Shown one piece after another: positions 2,489 through 30,276 of a stretch of 30,276 nt of DNA (its first letter is position 1; every line of letters starts with the position of its first letter). Position numbers and translations under genes: made by a program. The notes under the pieces were generated by a model. That model worked only from the letters and a program-made list of their open reading frames with translations. It had not been told where the DNA came from and searched no databases. The stretch comes from a virus, in the IMG/VR virus record IMGVR_UViG_3300017731_000022; one strand, given 5' to 3'.

Positions 2489-3531
2489 TTAATTGGTATG
2501 CAATTTGGTACTAATTTACCATTTTTCATTTTCATTCCATATTGTTCGTAACCATCATGACATGGAGCTTTTAAGTCTATTAAATCTAATTCTTTTAATT
2601 TACTTTCAGCCCAACGTTTTCCAGCTTTACCACCCCACAATAAATATGAGATAGTACCACACGCTTTTGTATCTCCTTCATCATAATAAGTTTCAGCTCT
2701 AGATAAATAAGAATACATACGTTTTATTGTTTCAACACTTATAGCTTTACCTTGCGCTAATTGTTGTGCTCTTACTTTACCTACTTGTGTTGCACATTTA
2801 TTATTTACCTTTTCATTTAATTCTAAGCCTCTCTTTGCATTATTTTTAACTCCGCTTGGGTAATCAGTATAACTCTCAAGAATCATCTTCTTACCATCTT
2901 TAACACGTTTATCATTTTTAATAATAGCCTTAACTTGACCTAATAAGTACTCACCTTCATCTTGATCTATTTCCTGTAATATTCTATCACTACTAAAATC
3001 ATTTATAGCTTCTTTTGGTCTTTCCATTTTGTCTGCAAAGTAACCTTCTATAGAAAATCCTTTCACTTTACCTGTCTTAACAAACTCTTCCCAAATCTTG
3101 TCGTTGTTTACTTTTACAGCACCTACCCAAGTACCTAAGGGTAAATCCATGCCATACTTAACTGATTTATCATGTACTTTATCTTCTACTATCCAAGATT
3201 CAACTAGACTCAACCCGTTTAACTCGTATTGATGTTCTAAAGTTGAATTATTTTGTTTACCTTGCATTAAGTACATTTGAGAAGCTTTTAATACAGTATC
3301 TTTTGAAAAGTATATATAGTATTCATCTTCTCCGTTTCGTCTGTATATAGGCTTATTTGGAATAAGTAAAGCACCCATTAAAATACGTTTCTCTTTGTCT
3401 ACCTCTGCAAGTTTAAATTCTTGTGATTTGAGTGCAATAAAATCTTCTTCTATTGCTGGATTTTCTACTACACTTATAGCTTCTATCCCTATCTCTTGTT
3501 CTTCGTCTAAAATAAGTTCTACTATTCTCAT
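2485..3531 (-). CDS. XkdF-like prohead protease domain protein with a C-terminal extension
   Basis: The N-terminal ~170 aa (ISVVENPAIEEDF...LEHQ...ESWIVED...GTWVGAVKV...GFSIEGYF) resembles the PBSX XkdF / S78-like family. The C-terminus has a LWGGKAGKRWAESK module and a Cys-pair tail, CHDGYEQYGMKMKNGKLVPNC. Confidence 0.5.
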   Translation of the reverse strand: MRIVELILDEEQEIGIEAISVVENPAIEEDFIALKSQEFKLAEVDKEKRILMGALLIPNKPIYRRNGEDEYYIYFSKDTVLKASQMYLMQGKQNNSTLEHQYELNGLSLVESWIVEDKVHDKSVKYGMDLPLGTWVGAVKVNNDKIWEEFVKTGKVKGFSIEGYFADKMERPKEAINDFSSDRILQEIDQDEGEYLLGQVKAIIKNDKRVKDGKKMILESYTDYPSGVKNNAKRGLELNEKVNNKCATQVGKVRAQQLAQGKAISVETIKRMYSYLSRAETYYDEGDTKACGTISYLLWGGKAGKRWAESKLKELDLIDLKAPCHDGYEQYGMKMKNGKLVPNCIPIK

Positions 3532-3544
3532 ACTAATATATAAT
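3532..3544 (-). promoter_or_regulatory. Start-abutting motif ATTATATATTAGT directly 5' of the ATG
   Basis: The minus strand reads ATTATATATTAGT-ATG. The 12-mer TTATATATTAGT is identical to the one abutting the ATG at 29609. Confidence 0.4.
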
Positions 3545-10318: not shown

Positions 10319-10975
10319 TTAGTTTAGTGATATTTTCAAATTTTGTAATATCTCCGTTAGCGATTCCATAGAGTGCGTTAAACCATCCCCATTTGGCTGA
10401 GAAAGCAGATGCTGTGCTAAAGCTATCTCGTTCTTCTTGCCCAAAGAGTTCATCATAACTATAGATAAGTCCTTGCCTAAATTGTAAAAAAAAACAATGG
10501 CACCTAAAACTACATCTAATGGAAACTCTTTAGCAATATCACTTGTGTCTGGATTATATTCTTTTATTTTATATCTATTACCTCTTCTATGTTCTATTGG
10601 TCTAAATAATACATTTATTGCTCTATGCAAATTATCATTATCTCCTATGAATGAATCTAAGTCCATATATTCTCCAAATGACATATCATCTAATTCTGGT
10701 ATAAAACCATAATCAATTCCATTATGTGTAAACCTATTTATAAGCTGGTGTTGTGAATCAAACATAGTATTTATTATCTCACAAATTTCTGCTATGTCTG
10801 TAGCTTTCATATTTCTAACTACAATCTCTGGTACATTACAAAATATCTCTACTATCTTTAATTGTATAGACGCATCATTAGTTTCATCTAACTTGCTTTC
10901 TAACTTTGCAAACTCTTGATATTGTGCTAAAGTAACATCATTTAAACTTGTTGGGATTCTTAGATTAACTTTCAT
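10319..10975 (-). CDS. Hypothetical protein downstream of terL
   Basis: The ORF is 218 aa with an ATG start. I do not recognise a family. Confidence 0.5.
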   Translation of the reverse strand: MKVNLRIPTSLNDVTLAQYQEFAKLESKLDETNDASIQLKIVEIFCNVPEIVVRNMKATDIAEICEIINTMFDSQHQLINRFTHNGIDYGFIPELDDMSFGEYMDLDSFIGDNDNLHRAINVLFRPIEHRRGNRYKIKEYNPDTSDIAKEFPLDVVLGAIVFFYNLGKDLSIVMMNSLGKKNEIALAQHLLSQPNGDGLTHSMESLTEILQNLKISLN

Positions 10976-10988
10976 AATTATATATAAA
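10976..10988 (-). promoter_or_regulatory. Start-abutting motif variant TTTATATATAATT directly 5' of the ATG
   Basis: The minus strand reads TTTATATATAATT-ATG, 23 nt after the terL stop. Confidence 0.3.
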
Positions 10989-12178: not shown

Positions 12179-12509
12179 TTATCTCTACTTTGAAGTTGTT
12201 AGGTAATCCGTCTGCGCCTGTTATTTCTTGTCTCTCGATGTAACCACGTGACTTTCCCTTAGTTTTTAAGTAGAATATCATTTCACTTGTCTTGCCTTCT
12301 CTGATGTTCTCAAATAACTTTGATTCAACAAAGTCTAATGCTATATTTTGTACGTCTTTTACTTCTGCAGCAAATTCTTTATCATCTTTTAACCAACCAT
12401 AAAATGTTGTTCTACCTACTCCTACTTTTCTACAAGCTTCTGTTACTACACCTAAGGATTTTTCTAAAGCTGCTATTATAGCTTTTTTATGTTGTTCAGT
12501 TTTGTTCAT
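12153..12509 (-). CDS. terS: Terminase small subunit (HTH)
   Basis: The 118-aa ORF has an N-terminal HTH-like segment, LGVVTEACRKVGVGRTTFYGWLKDD. It lies directly upstream of terL and overlaps it. Confidence 0.65.
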   Translation of the reverse strand: MNKTEQHKKAIIAALEKSLGVVTEACRKVGVGRTTFYGWLKDDKEFAAEVKDVQNIALDFVESKLFENIREGKTSEMIFYLKTKGKSRGYIERQEITGADGLPNNFKVEIIDNTKDTD

Positions 12510-12522
12510 ATTAATATATAAA
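12510..12522 (-). promoter_or_regulatory. Start-abutting motif TTTATATATTAAT directly 5' of the terS ATG
   Basis: The minus strand reads TTTATATATTAAT-ATG in the 28-bp gap before terS. Confidence 0.4.
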
Positions 12523-13210: not shown

Positions 13211-13459
13211 CTATTTATCTTGTTTTTCTCTACTTTTAATTACTCTGCTTTGTTCTTCTCTTAAATACTTTATTTCATGTTGTAAATAATCTAAAGCTTT
13301 TTCTAAATCTTGTATTTCATTACTTTTTAAATACTCATAGCCTTTTTTACCTGCTCTACAAACATATTTAATTATATTTCCTCTATTAAAGTTTAATCTG
13401 TATGCTTGCACAACATCTATTACTTCTATTCCTTGATCTGTTTTATAATGTAAACTCAT
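13211..13459 (-). CDS. DUF3310-like phage protein
   Basis: NFNRGNIIKYVCRAGKKG...QDLEKALDYLQHEI matches my recollection of the DUF3310 pattern (gN.iKY..R...K...DL.KA..Y). Confidence 0.5.
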   Translation of the reverse strand: MSLHYKTDQGIEVIDVVQAYRLNFNRGNIIKYVCRAGKKGYEYLKSNEIQDLEKALDYLQHEIKYLREEQSRVIKSREKQDK

Positions 13460-14172
13460 ATTTTTGTTCTTAGTTTTAATAAATTATAGCATTCTATGTA
13501 TTTCTGTTTTGCTTTACCTTTGTAATGTTGTATAAATAAATTATATAAATTCTTTACGTAACAAAATTTAGTATCGCATGATTTATAAAGTTTTTTAGCA
13601 TAAGCTTTTCCTTTACCTTTAAAATAGTTAACATTGTCAGCTCCATCACCAATAATCATTTGTTCGTAGAAATTATATAATGCTTGCTGTTCTGTTATAT
13701 CATAAACTTCTCTATGTTTAAAATGATAATTATACATTAAACAAGGAAATTGTTTGTAATCTTTATCAATAGAAACTATCATGACTTTATTTCTACCTAC
13801 TTCTTTAGATATATCATACCAATATTTAGCAACTAAATCGTCTGTTTCAATACCGTAAGCAAATAAACCATTATATTCTTTTCTAACAAACTCATGCATT
13901 TGAGATAATAAAGGTGGTATTTCAGTGTCATTTCTATTAGCTTTATATGTTTTAGTTAGTATCTTTCTAAAGTTTCCTTTAGATCCATTAAAAGTATATA
14001 TCTTTTCTATATCGTATAATTCTTCTAAGTCATTAACTATTTTCATATATTGTTGATCAAACTTAGCTATACTGTCTTCTATGTCTCTATAAAACTTATC
14101 ACTACTGCCTTCACTTTTAGCCCTTAAACAAGAAGCATAAACTAAACTATCTGCATCAATTAATAATATCAT
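13456..14172 (-). CDS. 5'-3' exonuclease / flap endonuclease (T4 RNase H-like)
   Basis: The FEN acidic-cluster motifs appear in order: LLIDADSLVY, YKANRN, GIETDDLVA, IVSIDKDYKQ and IGDGADNV. They parallel T4 RNase H (YKKNRG, EADD, SSDGDF, GDKKDNV). Confidence 0.75.
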   Translation of the reverse strand: MILLIDADSLVYASCLRAKSEGSSDKFYRDIEDSIAKFDQQYMKIVNDLEELYDIEKIYTFNGSKGNFRKILTKTYKANRNDTEIPPLLSQMHEFVRKEYNGLFAYGIETDDLVAKYWYDISKEVGRNKVMIVSIDKDYKQFPCLMYNYHFKHREVYDITEQQALYNFYEQMIIGDGADNVNYFKGKGKAYAKKLYKSCDTKFCYVKNLYNLFIQHYKGKAKQKYIECYNLLKLRTKI

Positions 14173-14909
14173 TATTCTTTTACAAACGTTCCATTTTGCA
14201 TTTTACCTTTACGGTTTTTAATTTCATTATAAGCAGAGTGTATGCATTCTTCTATACTCATAGCATTTAAATGTGCTAAGTTAGTTAATACAACAACCAT
14301 ATCTCCAATAGCATCTTCTATTTCTTTTGTATCTTGTTTTAATATTGCTTGTGCTAATTCACCTGCTTCTTCTATTAATTTAACATATTGTGTTTGCGCA
14401 TTACCTTTATCGTATAATCCTCTATCTTTTGCCCAAGTTCTAATATTATCAAATATTTCTAAATTTATTTTTGGTTTATTAATTACATCCCAAAAGTTTT
14501 TTAATGACTGCACATATATATATCTTTCATTATTATGTGCTGACTTAAAATTATTTCTTAAAATATATTCTTTTACTTCATCATTTAACTCTATATTATA
14601 TTCACTATCTAATTCTATATTAGTTGGCCAAGTATAATTATCAAAGCTTTTATTAAATGTCTTTTTAAATGTAACGGTTGTTTTAGTAATATGTATCATA
14701 AAATTATTAATTGTTTGTTTATACGTTCTTATATCATTTTTGTAGCCCAACTTATTTTGCCATTCAAATTCTAATTTAGAAGCTTCATCAATACATTTTG
14801 TTTTAGCTAATATTTTAAAGTCTGAATAACCTTGTTGGACTACGATTCTTTTTGCAGGATTTACAGTACAACCTACTTTTACACCTTCTATATGGTATAT
14901 GTAATACAT
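14172..14909 (-). CDS. mazG: MazG-type all-alpha NTP pyrophosphohydrolase with an N-terminal GIY-YIG/T5orf172-like segment
   Basis: The C-terminus, QYVKLIEEAGELAQAI...EIEDAIGDMVVVLTNLAHLNAMSIEE...NEIKNRKGKMQNGTFVK, carries the MazG EExxE...D signature. The N-terminus, YYIYHIEGVKVGCTVNPAKR, resembles a GIY-YIG superfamily core. Confidence 0.65.
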   Translation of the reverse strand: MYYIYHIEGVKVGCTVNPAKRIVVQQGYSDFKILAKTKCIDEASKLEFEWQNKLGYKNDIRTYKQTINNFMIHITKTTVTFKKTFNKSFDNYTWPTNIELDSEYNIELNDEVKEYILRNNFKSAHNNERYIYVQSLKNFWDVINKPKINLEIFDNIRTWAKDRGLYDKGNAQTQYVKLIEEAGELAQAILKQDTKEIEDAIGDMVVVLTNLAHLNAMSIEECIHSAYNEIKNRKGKMQNGTFVKE

Positions 14910-15151
14910 TAAATTTTTATGTTAGATCTACCACACAAAGGATATAAGTAAGTGTGGTATTTCATACCTTTAGTAATTTTTTTATTTTTAAATATAATGG
15001 TTTCTTTAGCAATATGTTCTTGTTTGCCACAATAACCAATAACTTCTCTATCTGGTTTTTCTATTTTTATAGATCCATAATATTTGTTACCAACATGATA
15101 ATCTACATGGTAACCTAAATGTTCGTATTTAACTCCGTAATATAAATTCAT
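14909..15151 (-). CDS. Hypothetical protein
   Basis: The 80-aa ORF is preceded by motif copy 15175..15187. Its TAA overlaps the next ATG. Confidence 0.5.
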   Translation of the reverse strand: MNLYYGVKYEHLGYHVDYHVGNKYYGSIKIEKPDREVIGYCGKQEHIAKETIIFKNKKITKGMKYHTYLYPLCGRSNIKI

Positions 15152-15174
15152 TGTATTTGTTTTATTGTTATATA

Positions 15175-15187
15175 GCTAATATACAAA
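15175..15187 (-). promoter_or_regulatory. Promoter-like motif TTTGTATATTAGC
   Basis: The minus strand reads TTTGTATATTAGC-TATATAACAATAAAACAAATACA-ATG within the 59-bp gap. The 13-mer is identical at 18385..18397. Confidence 0.5.
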
Positions 15188-15210
15188 TAACTTGTTAATA
15201 AAAAAAATAT

Positions 15211-15852
15211 TTATATGTTTTTATTGTAGTGACGTTCATATATATGTAAGTTATGAGCATAGTGTGTATAAAAACCTTGCTCACTATTTAAACTATTAGC
15301 AACTAATTCATGTAATTTTAAGAAACAATAAGCATCATTACAAAATCCAAACCATAAATCATTGCTTCTCATTAATACTGTCATGTGTAACTTATCTGAA
15401 TCAGGTGTATAATAAAATTGTATTGATAAAGTACAAGGAGTATCTTTAGAATAACCAGTATGTTCTTTACCATCATATATACTTATTACTGCACGTCTAG
15501 AATACTTATCACGTTTTAATTCTTTTATAGCATATTCCAATTGATTGTTTCTACTCCATTGCCAACCATAGTTTGAATTAACATATCCACGTTCATCCAT
15601 GTGGTTATACCAAATCTTAGCTACTTTAGCTATTTCAGTAGCATCACGGTTTTTAGATAAATACCATTCCCATTCTTTTTCTGCATAGTCTAATTTGAAA
15701 CCACGCTTTGGTGTAGTTACTATTTTTTGATTAGTATCTAATATAGTAAATATTTGATTGTATAAAGCTTTAGTACCATTAGCACTAGGTTGTGAATCTA
15801 ACTTTTTATAGTAATATTCAAAAGCTTCTGTTACGGTTTGAAATTGCCACAT
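15211..15852 (-). CDS. Deoxypyrimidylate hydroxymethylase of the ThyA superfamily; closest in motif pattern to T4 gp42 dCMP hydroxymethylase
   Basis: Four motifs parallel T4 gp42 as I remember it. EKEWEWYLSK matches ELEWYKSK, and VNSNYGWQWS matches INSNYGW.IWS. SRRAVISIY...PCTLSIQF carries a candidate catalytic Cys. MRSNDLWFGFCNDAY matches MRSNDVVFGFRNDYA, and the protein ends with HIYERHY. Confidence 0.75.
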   Translation of the reverse strand: MWQFQTVTEAFEYYYKKLDSQPSANGTKALYNQIFTILDTNQKIVTTPKRGFKLDYAEKEWEWYLSKNRDATEIAKVAKIWYNHMDERGYVNSNYGWQWSRNNQLEYAIKELKRDKYSRRAVISIYDGKEHTGYSKDTPCTLSIQFYYTPDSDKLHMTVLMRSNDLWFGFCNDAYCFLKLHELVANSLNSEQGFYTHYAHNLHIYERHYNKNI

Positions 15853-16001
15853 AATATATCTTTTTTTCTTATTGGATAAATATACTTATTATCTTTAAAT
15901 AAATATATATTTGTATTATCATTTAATTTATCTTTCCTTAAATATCTACCTTTTAATTTTGACCCTGCAAATTTAAAATAATAAAGTTTGTTTTGGTTCA
16001 T
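15831..16001 (-). CDS. Possible small ORF (56 aa) bridging the GT and hydroxymethylase genes
   Basis: Hand translation gives MNQNKLYYFKFAGSKLKGRYLRKDKLNDNTNIYLFKDNKYIYPIRKKDILCGNFKP. It covers the 120-nt gap, but it overlaps the GT end by 29 nt and the next gene by 22 nt. Confidence 0.3.
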   Translation of the reverse strand: MNQNKLYYFKFAGSKLKGRYLRKDKLNDNTNIYLFKDNKYIYPIRKKDILCGNFKP

Positions 16002-17178
16002 ACGCTTGTTTTTTCTTGGAAACTGTTTTAGACTTTTCTATTAAATCTTTAAAAGCTATATTTACATCACAATGTGATTTAGCAACATTATAAGCTAAGT
16101 TCCTTTTTTTATTCCTTAATTGTTTGTTATTTGATAATTCAACTATTTGTTCAACAGTTTCTTGATATTTATCTCTTTCATTATATATAAAACAATCTAA
16201 GTCATAAAAACTATCTCCTTGAATATGATAATTATTTTGTGCCCATTGTTTATCTACAACAACAATCATGCCAATGTTTATCATTTCTAAAGTAGAATAT
16301 TCTATAATATTACTATACTCTTCCTTTTTTAAATTAAAAAAATTAGCACCAAACATATTGTTAGATAATAATTCTAAAGTTGGTATTCTATCATAAGGAC
16401 CATAAACATGTAAATGATCTAAGTCTTGGCTATCTATAATACTTTTACTTCTATATTTTATATTACTATGTTCAGGTGATTTTAAATCCTTAGAGTTAGT
16501 AACAAAGAATTTTGTTTTAGCTCCAATAGATTTTTCTATACCTCTTGCTTCACATATTATTTCATGTTTAGATAATAATGGTTGTAAATGAATCATTCTA
16601 TCAGGCTCTTTAAATGTAGCGAATCTACCTAAATAAGACATTTTTTTTCTTTGTTCTTTTTTAATTAAAAAATCTAACTTACTAAAATCATGACCATTAT
16701 TAAAAAATTTAACAGGTGTATTAATACCAATTTCTTTTATTTTTTTATAAAACACAGTTCCTTTACCAAAAGTAAAAGCACAATCCATTTTTTTAACTGT
16801 TTCCCATAAATTGTAATTCCTATTTAAAGAATGTATTTTATGATCATTTTGAAAAATAATTTTAATAGGTTTATCAACACCAACTACAAGTTCATTAAAA
16901 AACTTTTCTTTATATGAATTAGAATTTGATTTACTTGGTAATGATTGGTAAAAAACAATATCACAATTATTTAATTGTTGCTTTATATTATTTATTTTAT
17001 CGTTTTTAAACTCTATTATTTTAGTTTGTTGAGTATTTTTTCTACCCCATTTTTTATCTAATGTAGCATAAGACTTACAGTTATACCCTTGTGATAATAA
17101 ATAATTTTGAAATTCAGTTGCAAATCTAGTAACACCACAACCTTCAATACCTCGTCCTAATAATATACCTATCTTCAT
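15973..17178 (-). CDS. a-gt: DNA alpha-glucosyltransferase-like GT-B glycosyltransferase (T4 AGT homologue)
   Basis: The 401-aa length compares with about 400 aa for T4 AGT. MKIGILLGRGIEGCGVTRF parallels T4 MRICIFMARGLEGCGVTKF, and NNCDIVFYQSLPSKS parallels NDCDILIINSVPATS. IIFQNDHKIHSLNRNYNLWETVKKMD parallels VVYQHDHSVLSLRRNLGLEETVRRAD, and IEYSTLEMINIGMIVVV parallels LEYTHLELGACGTIPVF. The T4 sequence is from memory. Confidence 0.7.
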   Translation of the reverse strand: MKIGILLGRGIEGCGVTRFATEFQNYLLSQGYNCKSYATLDKKWGRKNTQQTKIIEFKNDKINNIKQQLNNCDIVFYQSLPSKSNSNSYKEKFFNELVVGVDKPIKIIFQNDHKIHSLNRNYNLWETVKKMDCAFTFGKGTVFYKKIKEIGINTPVKFFNNGHDFSKLDFLIKKEQRKKMSYLGRFATFKEPDRMIHLQPLLSKHEIICEARGIEKSIGAKTKFFVTNSKDLKSPEHSNIKYRSKSIIDSQDLDHLHVYGPYDRIPTLELLSNNMFGANFFNLKKEEYSNIIEYSTLEMINIGMIVVVDKQWAQNNYHIQGDSFYDLDCFIYNERDKYQETVEQIVELSNNKQLRNKKRNLAYNVAKSHCDVNIAFKDLIEKSKTVSKKKQAYEPKQTLLF

Positions 17179-17435
17179 TTTTTATTATAATTATTTAATG
17201 CTGCTAAATAAGCAACGGCGTCTAATAAATTGTCTTCTTTGTGATTATAAGATTGTCTAGATAACTTTAAAGCTACAAGACACATATACATATCTTGTGG
17301 TGTAATAGTTTTACCAGTAGCTCCTGATGCTATCATAGCTGCTCTTTCCATTCCTTCTGAAAATGGACCGTACATACGTTCTTTTTCTTGTGAACGTTTA
17401 TTTATAATCTTATTTGCTTCTTCTAATATATTCAT
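17175..17435 (-). CDS. Small helical protein (DUF6378-like, tentative), translationally coupled to the GT gene
   Basis: The 86-aa ORF overlaps the GT start by ATGA. The pattern ERMYGPF...MYMCLVALKLSRQSYNHKEDNLLDAVAYLAAL recalls a phage family often found near nucleotide-metabolism genes. Confidence 0.4.
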   Translation of the reverse strand: MNILEEANKIINKRSQEKERMYGPFSEGMERAAMIASGATGKTITPQDMYMCLVALKLSRQSYNHKEDNLLDAVAYLAALNNYNKK

Positions 17436-18640: not shown

Positions 18641-18780
18641 AAATCTAAGTCTATATCATTCCACTCTTCACGACGTCTATCACATCCGCAATCTTTATTT
18701 AATAATTTACTAATTTTTTTAACTAACCAATGTATACCTGTATAATAAGTAAAATAGTAAAATAAATCTCCTAATTTCAT
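18628..18780 (-). CDS. Small ORF (50 aa), hypothetical; not in the ORF track
   Basis: Hand translation gives MKLGDLFYYFTYYTGIHWLVKKISKLLNKDCGCDRRREEWNDIDLDLWNK. It overlaps the sigma gene stop by ATGA and fills a 136-nt gap. Confidence 0.4.
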   Translation of the reverse strand: MKLGDLFYYFTYYTGIHWLVKKISKLLNKDCGCDRRREEWNDIDLDLWNK

Positions 18781-19268
18781 AATTGATCTTTTATAAATTT
18801 TTTAGTTGTTCTATAAGTATTATAAAGTGATATATAGCTTATACCAGTTTCTCTACTTAAACTAGCAACGCTTTTTCCACTTGCTATTAATTCAAAAACT
18901 TTTCTATCATACCAATAAAGGTCATTAAGTATTTGATCTACTTTGTTTTTATTTTTAGCGTATTCAACCTCATCTATACCCGGATCATCAATTTGTTTTA
19001 TTTCTTTTATTTGGTCTAAATATATCTTAATTTTTTTAGCTTCTTTTTTATGTATATTTAAATAAATACCTCTTAAAACTTTATAACAATAATAGTGATT
19101 AATATCACCTTTATAAGATATATCTAATCCTTTATGTATGTCTAAGTGTATTTGTATATACATTTCTTGTACAACATCTTCTGCTAAACTAGGATTACAA
19201 CCAAATGACTTTACTATGTTTATCCAATCTTTATGCTTTAAATAAGCTAACTCTACTAAAGATTTCAT
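18777..19268 (-). CDS. Sigma-70 family (ECF-like) RNA polymerase sigma factor
   Basis: AEDVVQEMYIQIH...YYCYKVLRGIYLNIHKKEAK resembles region 2. LYWYDRKVFELIASGKSVASLSRETGISYISLYNTYRTTKKFI resembles the region 4 HTH. Confidence 0.65.
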   Translation of the reverse strand: MKSLVELAYLKHKDWINIVKSFGCNPSLAEDVVQEMYIQIHLDIHKGLDISYKGDINHYYCYKVLRGIYLNIHKKEAKKIKIYLDQIKEIKQIDDPGIDEVEYAKNKNKVDQILNDLYWYDRKVFELIASGKSVASLSRETGISYISLYNTYRTTKKFIKDQL

Positions 19269-19272
19269 TTCA

Positions 19273-20136
19273 TTATGTTAATTTTTTATTTGATATTACA
19301 AAATACTTAAGTGGATCATATATCTCACCAACTACAAATGGTAGACCAAATTCATTAATACTAAAACTAAATGTTTCAAAAGCATAACCTCTTGAATTTT
19401 TACAACTAACAGTTATCCATTCTTTGTTTACTGTATTTGCTTCCAATTGAATTTGTGTCTCTGTTTTTTTCATTAAAAAGCTTCCTAAATGTCCTGTTGG
19501 TTTATCACTACCATAATTGCTATGTATAACAGTTACTATATGGCATTTATATTTAGCACTCCATTCCATTATCTTTTGTACACATAAATTAGATTCTTCT
19601 AAATTATTTACATCAGAAACTAAATCAGCAATACCATCAATAATAATTAATCCATTTTTATCTTTATTTTCTTCTAAACAATATTCTATAAATTGCATAC
19701 GCTGTTTATAATTTATAGTTCTTAAAGCATATGTATGATAACAACCTAAGTCATGCATATTGGCCATATCTTTTACTCTTTTAAATACTCTTTGACTGTG
19801 CCAATGACCTTGCTCTGTATCAAAATGAATTAAACATTTATTATCTCTATGTCCTAACATTTGTCCACCAAAATTATTACCACCACTTAAATAAACTGAA
19901 GCTAATAATGATATAAAAAAAGTCTTTTTAGTTTTTGGCGGTGCTTGTACAAATGAAAAGTTACCGTACGTACCTATTGGAATTGGGAATTTTTTTTCTC
20001 CACTTTTGGTTTGGATAGTAGTTTCACCAAGACTTAATGCTATAGGAGGATATTCCATAAATTCATTAGTGTCAATATAACACTCTTCCTTTATTAATTC
20101 CATTAACATGTTATCTGTGGTTTTTTTTTCTGTCAT
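19273..20136 (-). CDS. RecA-fold P-loop ATPase (DnaB/RepA-like, AAA_25 type); replicative helicase candidate
   Basis: Walker A-like QAPPKTKKT and Walker B-like GLIIIDGIADL are present, followed by HIVTVIHSN. I place the start at ATG 20136, because the track start at 20169 is a TTG that lies inside the promoter-like motif. Confidence 0.55.
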   Translation of the reverse strand: MTEKKTTDNMLMELIKEECYIDTNEFMEYPPIALSLGETTIQTKSGEKKFPIPIGTYGNFSFVQAPPKTKKTFFISLLASVYLSGGNNFGGQMLGHRDNKCLIHFDTEQGHWHSQRVFKRVKDMANMHDLGCYHTYALRTINYKQRMQFIEYCLEENKDKNGLIIIDGIADLVSDVNNLEESNLCVQKIMEWSAKYKCHIVTVIHSNYGSDKPTGHLGSFLMKKTETQIQLEANTVNKEWITVSCKNSRGYAFETFSFSINEFGLPFVVGEIYDPLKYFVISNKKLT

Positions 20137-20157
20137 AATATATTTTGTCTTGTTTTT

Positions 20158-20170
20158 GTTAATATACAAA
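20158..20170 (-). promoter_or_regulatory. Promoter-like motif TTTGTATATTAAC
   Basis: The motif lies 21 nt upstream of ATG 20136. Its T-rich 5' end merges with the U-tract of terminator 20168..20196. Confidence 0.5.
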
Positions 20171-29262: not shown

Positions 29263-29609
29263 AATATTATGTAATCGTTATCAAAACTATTCTCTGTAGT
29301 ATATTCACCGTCATTTACAGAATAGTAATCATTATTTGTTTGGTTTACAGTTTGATCTGTGCAAAATACTCTATCTTTATATATAACCGCATTACCATTT
29401 TTTATTTGAAGTGTATAAAAATCCCCTTCGGTTAATGTTCCAAATGCAGCAACAAAAGACATATAATTACCATCAGTTGAAGCAGTAGGTGTAATATTTA
29501 CGTTTGTACCTGTGCTTTCACTTGTAAGATTTACAGTAATCGCACCATTAATAAATTGACGAGGTATAACCTTAAAAGTCTTATTACCATTAGTTCCTAT
29601 TAACTTCAT
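29259..29609 (-). CDS. Hypothetical virion protein
   Basis: The 116-aa ORF is beta-rich and overlaps the portal start by ATGA. It ends in TENSFDNDYIIL. Confidence 0.45.
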   Translation of the reverse strand: MKLIGTNGNKTFKVIPRQFINGAITVNLTSESTGTNVNITPTASTDGNYMSFVAAFGTLTEGDFYTLQIKNGNAVIYKDRVFCTDQTVNQTNNDYYSVNDGEYTTENSFDNDYIIL

Positions 29610-29622
29610 ACTAATATATAAA
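29610..29622 (-). promoter_or_regulatory. Start-abutting motif TTTATATATTAGT directly 5' of the ATG
   Basis: The minus strand reads TTTATATATTAGT-ATG, 21 nt downstream of terminator 29644..29671. Confidence 0.4.
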
Positions 29623-29735: not shown

Positions 29736-30275
29736 CTAAGCTGGACTAATTGGTGTAGCAGAAGCTACATCTGGTACAGTACAGAAGAACGGAGGAAATA
29801 CCTCAGTTGCTACAGCAGTTAATGTAAACCCTTGTAAATCTCCAGGAGCAGCTCCAGTTACAATTGTACCTCCAGTAATCTCAGCACCATTGTCTTTACC
29901 CATTAATAAGTACTTAGTAACTCCAGCACCATTTGGATATAACTCTATAACGTAATGAGCTCTACCTCTATTAAGAAGTTTTATCTCTTCTTGTGTTGCT
30001 ACGTCTAAAACTTGAAAAGTTACATTTAAAGTACTTTCATAAAAAGTAGTACCATTCTCTCTTGATGAGTTTACTACTGTTTCTAAAGATGATTGCCCAC
30101 CTTTTACTTCAAACTTAAAAAACTCAGCAGAGTTATCAGTTGGCAAGGGTATAGTTCCACTTGAATCTGACAATGCAGCTACAGTAGCACTATAATCTAA
30201 GATGTAAATATTTTTAATTCCAGCAAAGGCAGTCTTACATCCAACCCCTCTACCTTTTGTTATTGCACAAGCCAT
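29736..30275 (-). CDS. Abundant virion protein, tail-tube-like (tentative)
   Basis: The 179-aa ORF is preceded (across the circular junction) by the capsid terminator and followed by its own terminator. The pattern ITKGRGVGCKTAFAGIKNIYILDYS...ENGTTFYES resembles siphovirus tube proteins I have seen; this is not verified. Confidence 0.4.
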   Translation of the reverse strand: MACAITKGRGVGCKTAFAGIKNIYILDYSATVAALSDSSGTIPLPTDNSAEFFKFEVKGGQSSLETVVNSSRENGTTFYESTLNVTFQVLDVATQEEIKLLNRGRAHYVIELYPNGAGVTKYLLMGKDNGAEITGGTIVTGAAPGDLQGFTLTAVATEVFPPFFCTVPDVASATPISPA

Positions 30276-30276
30276 A
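30154..30276. repeat. Terminal direct duplication, copy 2 (identical to 1..123)
   Basis: This is an exact 123-bp match to the left end of the window. Confidence 0.95.

Follow-up and report, generated by a model that had tools for sequence, protein, structure and literature searches.

A predicted T4-like module for cytosine hydroxymethylation and glycosylation in a complete 30-kb phage genome

Can a phage of about 30 kb that lacks a recognisable DNA polymerase and nucleotide kinase replace the cytosine of its DNA with a glucosylated base, as phage T4 does? This question is raised by the IMG/VR virus record IMGVR_UViG_3300017731_000022, a stretch of 30,276 nt (the window in the following), in which a block of minus-strand genes at 17435..14172 encodes a thymidylate synthase (ThyA)-like protein, a homologue of the T4 alpha-glucosyltransferase (AGT) and a MazG-domain protein. 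Glucosylated 5-hydroxymethylcytosine (5hmC) has been studied almost entirely in T-even phages of about 170 kb, which have their own replisome and nucleotide kinase. An original prediction, made from the letters of the window and their open reading frames (ORFs), had proposed a compact T4-style DNA modification module here. All six ORFs that it named are present at the coordinates it gave, all on the minus strand, and searches of the three proteins against Pfam and PDB returned T4 dCMP hydroxymethylase, T4 AGT and the MazG families, as it had expected. We consider it probable that these three enzymes, together with host machinery, follow a T4-like scheme in which cytosine is replaced before replication and glycosylated afterwards.

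The ThyA-like protein (15211..15852, minus strand, 213 aa) matches the Pfam family Thymidylat_synt (PF00303) with an expectation value (E) of 1.1e-25 and a score of 90.7 bits, where the cut-off is 24.3. Among solved structures, T4 deoxycytidylate hydroxymethylase (1b49) matches it best, with E 7.4e-17, and ranks above all thymidylate synthases. With the NCBIfam thymidylate synthase equivalogs it reaches 72.8 bits, far below their cut-offs of 327 bits or more. Three positions, numbered as in Escherichia coli ThyA (Ec), are diagnostic for enzymes of this superfamily. Replacement of N177 by D switches the substrate to dCMP (NAR 2026, PMC13326640; also eLife 2021), replacement of L143 by D or E correlates with a hydroxymethyl instead of a methyl product, and replacement of D169 by N marks the flavin-dependent 5-hydroxy-dCMP (5hodCMP) synthases of phages RB69 and DLP3 (both NAR 2026, PMC13326640). 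We aligned the window protein and its relatives with E. coli ThyA, T4 gp42 and RB69 gp48 (alignment A1). The sequences around Ec 143/146, Ec 169 and Ec 177 read KDTPC, RSND and FCND in the window protein, SDFMC, RSND and FRND in T4 gp42, EYPC, RSQN and QLD in RB69 gp48, and ALAPC, RSCD and PFN in E. coli ThyA. The window protein, with L143 replaced by D, D169 kept and N177 replaced by D, equals T4 gp42 at all three positions. Of the catalytic cysteine and the conserved residues that bind phosphate and substrate, C146, R126, R166, S167 and H207 are invariant in this alignment and Y209 is nearly so; the catalytic cysteine, Ec E58, the arginine pair and R166/S167 are retained in the window protein within the motifs EKEWEWY, SRRAV, PCT and MRSND. 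The protein is set apart from canonical ThyA by its score below the equivalog cut-off and by aspartate at both Ec 177 and Ec 143, and from the 5hodCMP synthases by RSND in place of the RSQN of RB69 gp48. The gp42-like motif pattern noticed earlier is thus confirmed at each diagnostic position, and the outcome named as refuting it, a placement with ordinary thymidylate synthases, did not occur. We predict that the protein makes 5-hydroxymethyl-dCMP (5hm-dCMP), as T4 gp42 does, and that it is neither a thymidylate synthase nor an enzyme of the RB69 type.

The closest match of this protein in a cultured phage (52% identity) is found in 53-kb Bacteroides fragilis phages. It lies in BF503P2 (OP172671.1; locus L005 of our set), a 53-kb B. 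fragilis phage with two ThyA-family genes (34973-35779 and 37853-38533) and a dUTPase gene between them. Both are annotated as deoxycytidylate 5-hydroxymethyltransferase, and the second copy is divergent (RSSD...PYD).

The 401-aa product of the gene at 15973..17178 (minus strand) had been described as collinear with T4 AGT in several motif blocks, and both sequence and predicted structure agree with this. Its N-terminal half matches the Pfam family AGT (PF11440; E 1.4e-13, score 51.1 bits, cut-off 25), residues 1-378 match PHROG 2888, alpha-glucosyltransferase (E 1.2e-66), and phmmer aligns the protein with the T4 AGT structure 1xv5 at E 1e-23, in two segments that span both domains. T4 a-gt aligns with it in a tblastn search over 94% of the query with 24% identity (E 6e-16). 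Nearly all of its 93 database homologues carry PF11440 (the exceptions are P0247, P0248, P0251 and P0253), and when T4 AGT is aligned with the family, 29 columns prove invariant, among them R9, E12, G13, G15, D41, K42, R46, D112, H113, S117, R120 and N121, as well as R185, K190, E215, E293 and E298. An AlphaFold model built with 44 homologues reached a mean local confidence (pLDDT) of 91.8 and a predicted template modelling score (pTM) of 0.89. The top PDB matches of this model in Foldseek are nine chains of T4 AGT with template modelling (TM) scores of 0.81-0.86 (E 1e-25 to 9e-28), whereas the next families, GT4-type and other GT-B glycosyltransferases, reach only about 0.6 (0.62 or less; E 1e-10 or weaker). 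A placement with unrelated glycosyltransferase families, the second outcome that had been named as refuting, was therefore not obtained. Judged by sequence and model, the protein is a full-length homologue of the T4 AGT family with a GT-B fold. It is predicted to glycosylate 5hmC in DNA after replication, and the hexose would most likely be glucose, taken from UDP-glucose and attached in alpha linkage. According to a 2026 survey, glycosyltransferases of this AGT family are found in phage genomes only. Of 654 GenBank phage records with an AGT homologue, we sampled 60, and all of these are at least 113 kb long.

The third enzyme, a protein of 245 aa encoded at 14172..14909 (minus strand), proved to be of the MazG type, as had been proposed. 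The Pfam domain MazG (PF03819) is matched above its cut-off (E 6.7e-08, 33.1 bits against 22) by residues ~150-245 only, the PHROG family of MazG-like pyrophosphatases is matched with E 1.8e-38, and the EExxE...ExxD metal-binding motifs (LIEEAGELAQA...EIEDAIGDMVV) align to the same motifs in the solved structures 1vmg and 2yxh. T4 gp56, the dCTPase whose role had been suggested for this protein, itself matches the Pfam family dUTPase_2 and not MazG, and the MazG protein may at most be a functional analogue of gp56. The best available evidence for a dCTPase role comes from three related loci (L003, L004 and L054), in which a clear homologue of T4 gp56 appears to serve as the pyrophosphohydrolase (E 1e-20 to 1e-23). 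This lends support to the role suggested earlier, and we regard the MazG domain as a predicted dCTPase. The N-terminal ~150 residues of the protein give a MUG113/T5orf172 (GIY-YIG-like) signal below the Pfam cut-off (E 0.0028), and the weak resemblance includes window positions 14745-14909 (residues ~1-55, YYIYHIEGVKVGCTVNPAKR...). This extension is restricted to the closest relatives (9 loci); the others have a stand-alone MazG protein of about 100 aa. T4 endonuclease II is a GIY-YIG enzyme that attacks cytosine-containing DNA, and a link between it and the extension is speculative.

Related loci provide a view on how these enzymes are combined. We collected 91 loci with ThyA homologues of the aspartate (D) type, compared all their ORFs to T4 references and to the proteins of the window, and used 40 non-redundant loci with adequate flanks for counts of neighbours. 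A MazG or gp56-like nucleoside triphosphate pyrophosphohydrolase is found near the ThyA gene in 39 of these 40. The position between the ThyA gene and the gene for a small DUF6378 protein, which is occupied by the AGT homologue in the window, is a variable slot among the related loci. It holds an AGT-like gene in 15 loci, a gene similar to T4 beta-glucosyltransferase (BGT) in 22, with phmmer E values between 1e-8 and 1e-16, a gene for a 344-aa protein with no assigned family in 10 loci, and in 12 loci (L055, L065, L067, L068, L072-L075, L079, L085, L091 and L092) a conserved cassette of three genes for proteins of ~300 aa each, one of which is a pyridoxal phosphate (PLP)-dependent (PALP) enzyme. 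An S-adenosylmethionine (SAM)-dependent methyltransferase and a 440-aa protein also occur in the slot, and further loci with other genes there are L086, L077, L035, L002 and L003. The 344- and 351-aa slot proteins of L002 and L003 were considered as divergent AGT or BGT enzymes and rejected, as BLASTP, PDB, Pfam and PHROG searches gave no support. The variety of the other slot genes suggests additional cytosine adducts that are yet to be characterised.

The most telling comparison is with locus L020 (IMGVR_UViG_3300030101_004241), which is ~88% identical to the window at the nucleotide level over 20200-17174 and 15863-11003. The break in this alignment, at 17174..15863, coincides with the AGT gene, and L020 carries a BGT-like gene there instead (phmmer E 7e-10). 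Because both T4 enzymes act on DNA containing 5hmC, this swap of an AGT homologue for a BGT homologue independently supports 5hmC as the acceptor. We read the swappable slot as a sign of diversification under pressure from modification-dependent defences. The exact replacement of an alpha- by a beta-glucosyltransferase gene between genomes that are 88% identical amounts to a natural experiment on escape from anomer-specific defences such as the Brig1 glycosylase, and we consider this cassette swap and the DUF6378 partner the most useful leads of the present analysis.

Bases 1-123 of the window are identical to bases 30154-30276 (repeat family D1 of our repeat search, 100% identity at a spacing of 30153), and because of this exact terminal direct repeat of 123 nt, the window represents a complete assembly, terminally redundant or circular, with a unit of 30,153 bp. 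The window is a complete genome and not a fragment, which upholds and sharpens the earlier estimate of a ~30-kb phage, and the absence of genes can therefore be asserted. When the 48 minus-strand ORFs with a length of 50 aa or more were all compared to Pfam, no DNA polymerase, no primase and no P-loop deoxynucleoside monophosphate (dNMP) kinase was detected, and PHROG scans of the large ORFs likewise revealed neither a polymerase nor a dNMP kinase. The earlier statement that both are missing thus holds for recognisable families. An 880-aa ORF was considered as a hidden polymerase and dismissed; it has a weak fn3 match and no relative in PDB, and it is located among structural genes. The lack of a polymerase presents no mechanistic obstacle, since E. 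coli cells that were supplied with a ThyA homologue and a dNMP kinase used their own polymerases to build 5hmdC and 5hodC into plasmids (NAR 2026, PMC13326640). When the ThyA homologue was expressed in this assay with no phage kinase beside it, the modified base was obtained in traces only. The kinase step is a real gap in the pathway. T4 needs gp1 for the conversion of 5hm-dCMP to 5hm-dCDP.

The pathway that we propose would proceed in five steps. The MazG domain would hydrolyse dCTP to dCMP and pyrophosphate, depleting the canonical nucleotide and feeding the next enzyme. The ThyA homologue would bind dCMP via the aspartate at Ec 177 and move the methylene group of methylenetetrahydrofolate to C5, after which water, aided by the aspartate at Ec 143, would attack the exocyclic methylene to give 5hm-dCMP. 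A kinase, perhaps the CMP/dCMP kinase of the host or an uncharacterised phage protein, and the nucleoside diphosphate (NDP) kinase of the host would then convert 5hm-dCMP to the triphosphate. The host replisome would incorporate 5hm-dCTP, with a AAA_25 ATPase, a flap endonuclease and NinG as accessory proteins added by the phage, and finally the AGT homologue would move a hexose onto 5hmC in the duplex, most likely from UDP-glucose and in alpha linkage. The likely benefit is virion DNA that is shielded from restriction and CRISPR nucleases. The presence and family membership of the genes, the diagnostic residues, the completeness of the genome and its lack of polymerase and kinase families were observed directly; all substrates, the sugar, its anomer and the extent of cytosine replacement are inferred.

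A number of points weigh against this pathway. For this phage the whole scheme is drawn from sequence. Orthology of the MazG protein with T4 gp56 was rejected (BLASTP E 0.07, with no meaningful alignment), and MazG-family enzymes vary in specificity. An identity of 24% to T4 AGT is too low to read the sugar donor or the anomer from the sequence. The related loci belong to one broad phage lineage, so that the co-occurrence counts are not independent. Moreover, the Pfam scan of the 48 ORFs yielded no enzyme for the step from 5hm-dCMP to 5hm-dCDP, and cytosine replacement could be partial, because the assay of the kinase-free ThyA homologue led to trace incorporation. It is thus conceivable that the same enzymes are at work, but that 5hmC replaces cytosine only in part for want of a dedicated 5hm-dCMP kinase, or that the sugar or its linkage is a different one. 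The missing dNMP kinase family, the trace amounts of modified base obtained with kinase-free ThyA homologues in E. coli, the distance of the glycosyltransferase from T4 AGT (just 24% identity) and the chemical diversity of the slot in relatives, with BGT-like genes, a PLP-enzyme cassette and a SAM methyltransferase, would all agree with this. However, the presence of a pyrophosphohydrolase predicted to remove dCTP in 39 of 40 loci fits active exclusion of dCTP best, the invariant residues of the AGT family, including the pairs R185/K190 and E293/E298, are common to the window protein and T4 AGT, and UDP-glucose is a universal bacterial metabolite. We regard partial replacement, or another sugar or linkage, as unlikely, albeit as the main rival of the favoured scheme.

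Two further explanations would change the chemistry itself. The ThyA homologue could be a flavin-dependent 5hodCMP synthase as in RB69 and DLP3, or a dCMP methylase as in phage XP12, so that the sugar would sit on a C5 hydroxyl or be lacking altogether. RB69-type enzymes also show N177D, together with L143E, and adjoin glycosyltransferases, and their chemistry was long mistaken for that of 5hmC. The replacement D169N, which is present in every tested 5hodCMP synthase, is nevertheless missing in the window (RSND compared to RSQN), the acidic residue at Ec 143 speaks against a methyl product, and the transferases encoded alongside are homologous to the two T4 enzymes whose acceptor is 5hmC, all of which makes this explanation very improbable. 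Still less probable, and in our view hardly tenable, is that the DNA is unmodified and that the genes are unrelated auxiliary functions, with the ThyA homologue supplying dTMP, MazG acting in pool sanitation or the stringent response, and the glycosyltransferase modifying the envelope or proteins. The ThyA protein is indeed labelled 'thymidylate synthase' by JGI, and MazG genes are generally known to be common in marine phages not known for DNA modification. Such a role is at odds with aspartate in place of asparagine at Ec 177 and in place of leucine at Ec 143, with a score of 73 bits where the thymidylate synthase cut-off is 327, and with the rank of T4 dCMP hydroxymethylase above all thymidylate synthases in the PDB search. 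In addition, the AGT family is described as phage-only and the model fits T4 AGT far better than cellular GT4 enzymes, a BGT homologue is swapped in exactly at the glycosyltransferase position of a close relative, and the genes are translationally coupled.

This coupling is evident from the layout of the block, which forms one tightly coupled gene set on the minus strand at 17435..14172. In order of transcription, the gene for the DUF6378 protein (17435-17175) is followed by the AGT-like gene (17178-15973), orf56 (16001-15831), the ThyA-like gene (15852-15211), orf80 (15151-14909) and the MazG gene (14909-14172), and then by genes for a flap endonuclease (14172-13456) and a DUF3310 protein (13459-13211). 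Most junctions in the block overlap, by 1-29 nt: the DUF6378 and AGT-like genes by 4 nt, the AGT-like gene and orf56 by 29 nt, orf56 and the ThyA-like gene by 22 nt, and orf80 and the MazG gene by 1 nt. By these overlaps the ORFs are translationally coupled. The co-directional block with small coupled ORFs that the original prediction had described is thus supported by the shared strand and the overlapping junctions.

Two of these small ORFs have no match in Pfam, PHROG or NCBIfam searches. The product of orf56 (15831..16001, 56 aa), which overlaps both of its neighbours, has homologues in 31 related loci (25 unique sequences) with the conserved pattern FAG..LND..YPI.K..CGN. In two relatives that are 94-99% identical (L009 and L010), orf56 is cleanly deleted between window positions 15968 and 15853, and the stop of the AGT gene and the start of the ThyA gene are 2 nt apart. 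Its conservation marks orf56 as a real small gene, yet one that is dispensable. The product of orf80 (14909..15151, 80 aa), encoded between the hydroxymethylase and MazG genes, has homologues in 39 related loci, where they occupy the equivalent position and share a conserved GYCG...YLYPLCGRSN motif. The coupled neighbour at 13456..14172 (minus strand) encodes a 5'-3' exonuclease or flap endonuclease (Pfam 5_3_exonuc_N, E 7.6e-10; PHROG exonuclease, E 3e-39), whose NCBIfam matches are to the N-terminal region of Pol I and to Xni. It is a replication accessory and stands outside the modification chemistry.

The ORF at 13211..13459 (minus strand, 82 aa), which the original prediction overlooked, is a stand-alone DUF3310 domain (Pfam E 3.8e-12). 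The same domain is found at residues 122-184 of T7 gp1.7 (E 4.5e-23), an unconventional nucleotide kinase, and the window protein is homologous to this region of gp1.7 (BLASTP E 1e-4, 38% identity over 58 aa). In contrast to gp1.7, it lacks the N-terminal ~120 residues, so that the full architecture of the T7 enzyme (~196 aa, an N-terminal region plus DUF3310) is not present and the 82-aa ORF consists of the DUF3310 domain alone. A DUF3310 ORF was found in only 11 of the 91 related loci. The protein is a weak candidate for the missing kinase.

The first gene of the block (17175..17435, minus strand) encodes an 86-aa DUF6378 protein (Pfam E 1.4e-13), a small helical bundle. DUF6378 is found in 30 of the 40 well-flanked related loci, and the notion that it is a universal component of the module was rejected, because 10 of the 40 lack it even when searched with a hidden Markov model (HMM) of the family. 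Identity among the top 120 database matches is 79-97%, and residues G23, K57, R60 and D72 are invariant. The structural model (pLDDT 92.4) has no PDB match at E<1, and its top 50 fold matches in BFVD are almost all members of the DUF6378 family; gp1.7 is not among them. Among phages the domain is widespread, and 1027 representative proteins match it at E<=1e-3. Within the set of homologues P0381-P0530, some are fused to dUTPase, MazG/PRA-PH, ThyA, HAD, DCD or UDG domains, which points to a tie with deoxynucleotide metabolism in general. In the unrelated Faecalibacterium phage FP01, a DUF6378 gene adjoins a ThyX gene. A resemblance between motifs, K-x-x-R ... D-x-x-[DK]-A-x-x-Y, had prompted the idea that DUF6378 is a relative of DUF3310 and gp1.7 and is thus the missing kinase. 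At the sensitivity of our searches this kinship was rejected: hhalign gave a probability of 0.7% (with a shallow DUF3310 alignment), the DUF6378 HMM scores DUF3310 and gp1.7 at E 0.26-0.35, and the two proteins have no PHROG match in common.

A bolder reading, for which we see a modest chance at best, is that DUF6378, orf80 or the DUF3310 protein supplies the 5hm-dCMP step or couples the pathway to the host replisome, and that the slot works as a switch of adducts at the population level. DUF6378 could then be a new nucleotide kinase without a P-loop, or a tether for a complex of dNTP synthesis, and the slot would alternate among alpha-glucosyl, beta-glucosyl and other adducts to escape modification-dependent defences. 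If this were true, the minimal gene set for base replacement on a host polymerase would be defined.

Of the characterised systems, the T4 pathway is closest to the module that we favour, with cytosine replaced before replication and glycosylated after it, and the two agree in several respects. The predicted hydroxymethylase has the diagnostic residues of gp42, the glycosyltransferase is a true homologue in the AGT family with the same fold, an all-alpha nucleoside triphosphate pyrophosphohydrolase adjoins the hydroxymethylase, and relatives of the window use a BGT or a gp56 homologue instead. However, the genome has 30 kb compared to 169 kb for T4 and lacks a phage polymerase, clamp, primase and gp1-type kinase, its pyrophosphohydrolase is a MazG-family protein without orthology to gp56, and there is one glycosyltransferase where T4 has two. 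The genes are arranged in a single coupled block with DUF6378 and two conserved small ORFs, for which a comparison with the genes annotated in a 23-kb region of T4 gave no match. The hosts also differ, an enterobacterium for T4 and probably a marine member of the Bacteroidota for the window.

A ThyA homologue with N177D that acts on dCMP before replication, and glycosyltransferases that act on the DNA afterwards, are likewise known from RB69 and DLP3 (NAR 2026, PMC13326640). Their ThyA homologues combine N177D, L143E and D169N and use flavin and O2 to make 5hodCMP, whereas the window enzyme keeps Asp169, and these phages have a dNMP kinase and a polymerase of their own as well as genes for NDP-sugar synthesis. 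Similar gene clusters have been described from metaviromes. In the MetaGPA study (eLife 2021), ThyA proteins with Asp177 are enriched on metavirome contigs that were shown experimentally to carry modified cytosine, and they co-occur with pyrophosphohydrolases of the PRA-PH type. A preprint ('Virus-encoded glycosyltransferases hypermodify DNA with diverse glycans', bioRxiv 2023), for which IMG/VR was the main source of about 25,000 contigs, reports that GT-B enzymes often adjoin thymidylate synthase homologues. The features in common with the window are ThyA with Asp177, a pyrophosphohydrolase of the PRA-PH/MazG type and a variable group transferase on contigs of uncultured phages, whereas the window transferase is of the AGT family, unlike the carbamoyltransferase and the GT-A/GT-B enzymes in those profiles, and the window genome is complete. 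In the passages of these two papers that we consulted, neither the alpha/beta glycosyltransferase swap nor the DUF6378 association is described. To call the pathway unusually minimal, as the original prediction did, is an overstatement in view of these reports; the module is a minimal variant of a ThyA-plus-glycosyltransferase class that is already known from metaviromes. For 5hmC in phages of Polaribacter or in marine phages with MazG, we found no report in the literature. If glycosylated 5hmC DNA is truly made by this phage, then the Pol III replisome of a bacterium, helped by host kinases, would be enough to replace a base almost completely, a small portable cassette would be at hand for engineering modified DNA, and marine viromes may systematically under-recover or mis-sequence phages of this kind.

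The window has an AT-rich base composition (~23-36% G+C over 1-kb intervals), and all of its credible genes are located on the minus strand. It encodes small and large terminase, portal, capsid-like, protease-like, tail and tail-fibre proteins, a holin and an endolysin for lysis, and furthermore NinG, an AAA_25 ATPase, a sigma-like protein (18777-19268) and the flap endonuclease. Identical proteins recur on contigs of 30-32 kb in NCBI, JGI, ENA, Logan and Tara Oceans data. A megablast search with 8.2 kb of the window against 50,697 phage records gave no cultured relative at the DNA level. The closest large terminase subunits, with 38% identity, are those of Flavobacterium psychrophilum phages. 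Some protein homologues bear labels of metagenome-assembled genomes (MAGs) of Polaribacter sp., and homologues of the D-type ThyA in GTDB genomes are confined to MAG contigs, mostly in Bacteroidota bins; both are hints at most. The host is likely a marine member of the Bacteroidota.

Two observations concern genes outside the block. The replication region encodes a single P-loop protein, the AAA_25 ATPase (19273-20169, minus strand, 298 aa), which has a deviant Walker A motif (APPKTKKT) and no sequence relative in PDB. In addition, at five late or structural ORFs, one of them the small terminase gene, the ATG coincides exactly with the end of the 16-nt motif TTTATATATTARTATG (1760-1775, 3529-3544, 10973-10988, 12507-12522 and 29607-29622, minus strand; see also repeat families D3, D7 and D18). 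Five matches compare with 1.09 expected by chance, and because the phage encodes the sigma-like protein at 18777-19268, the motif could be a late promoter or a leader element.

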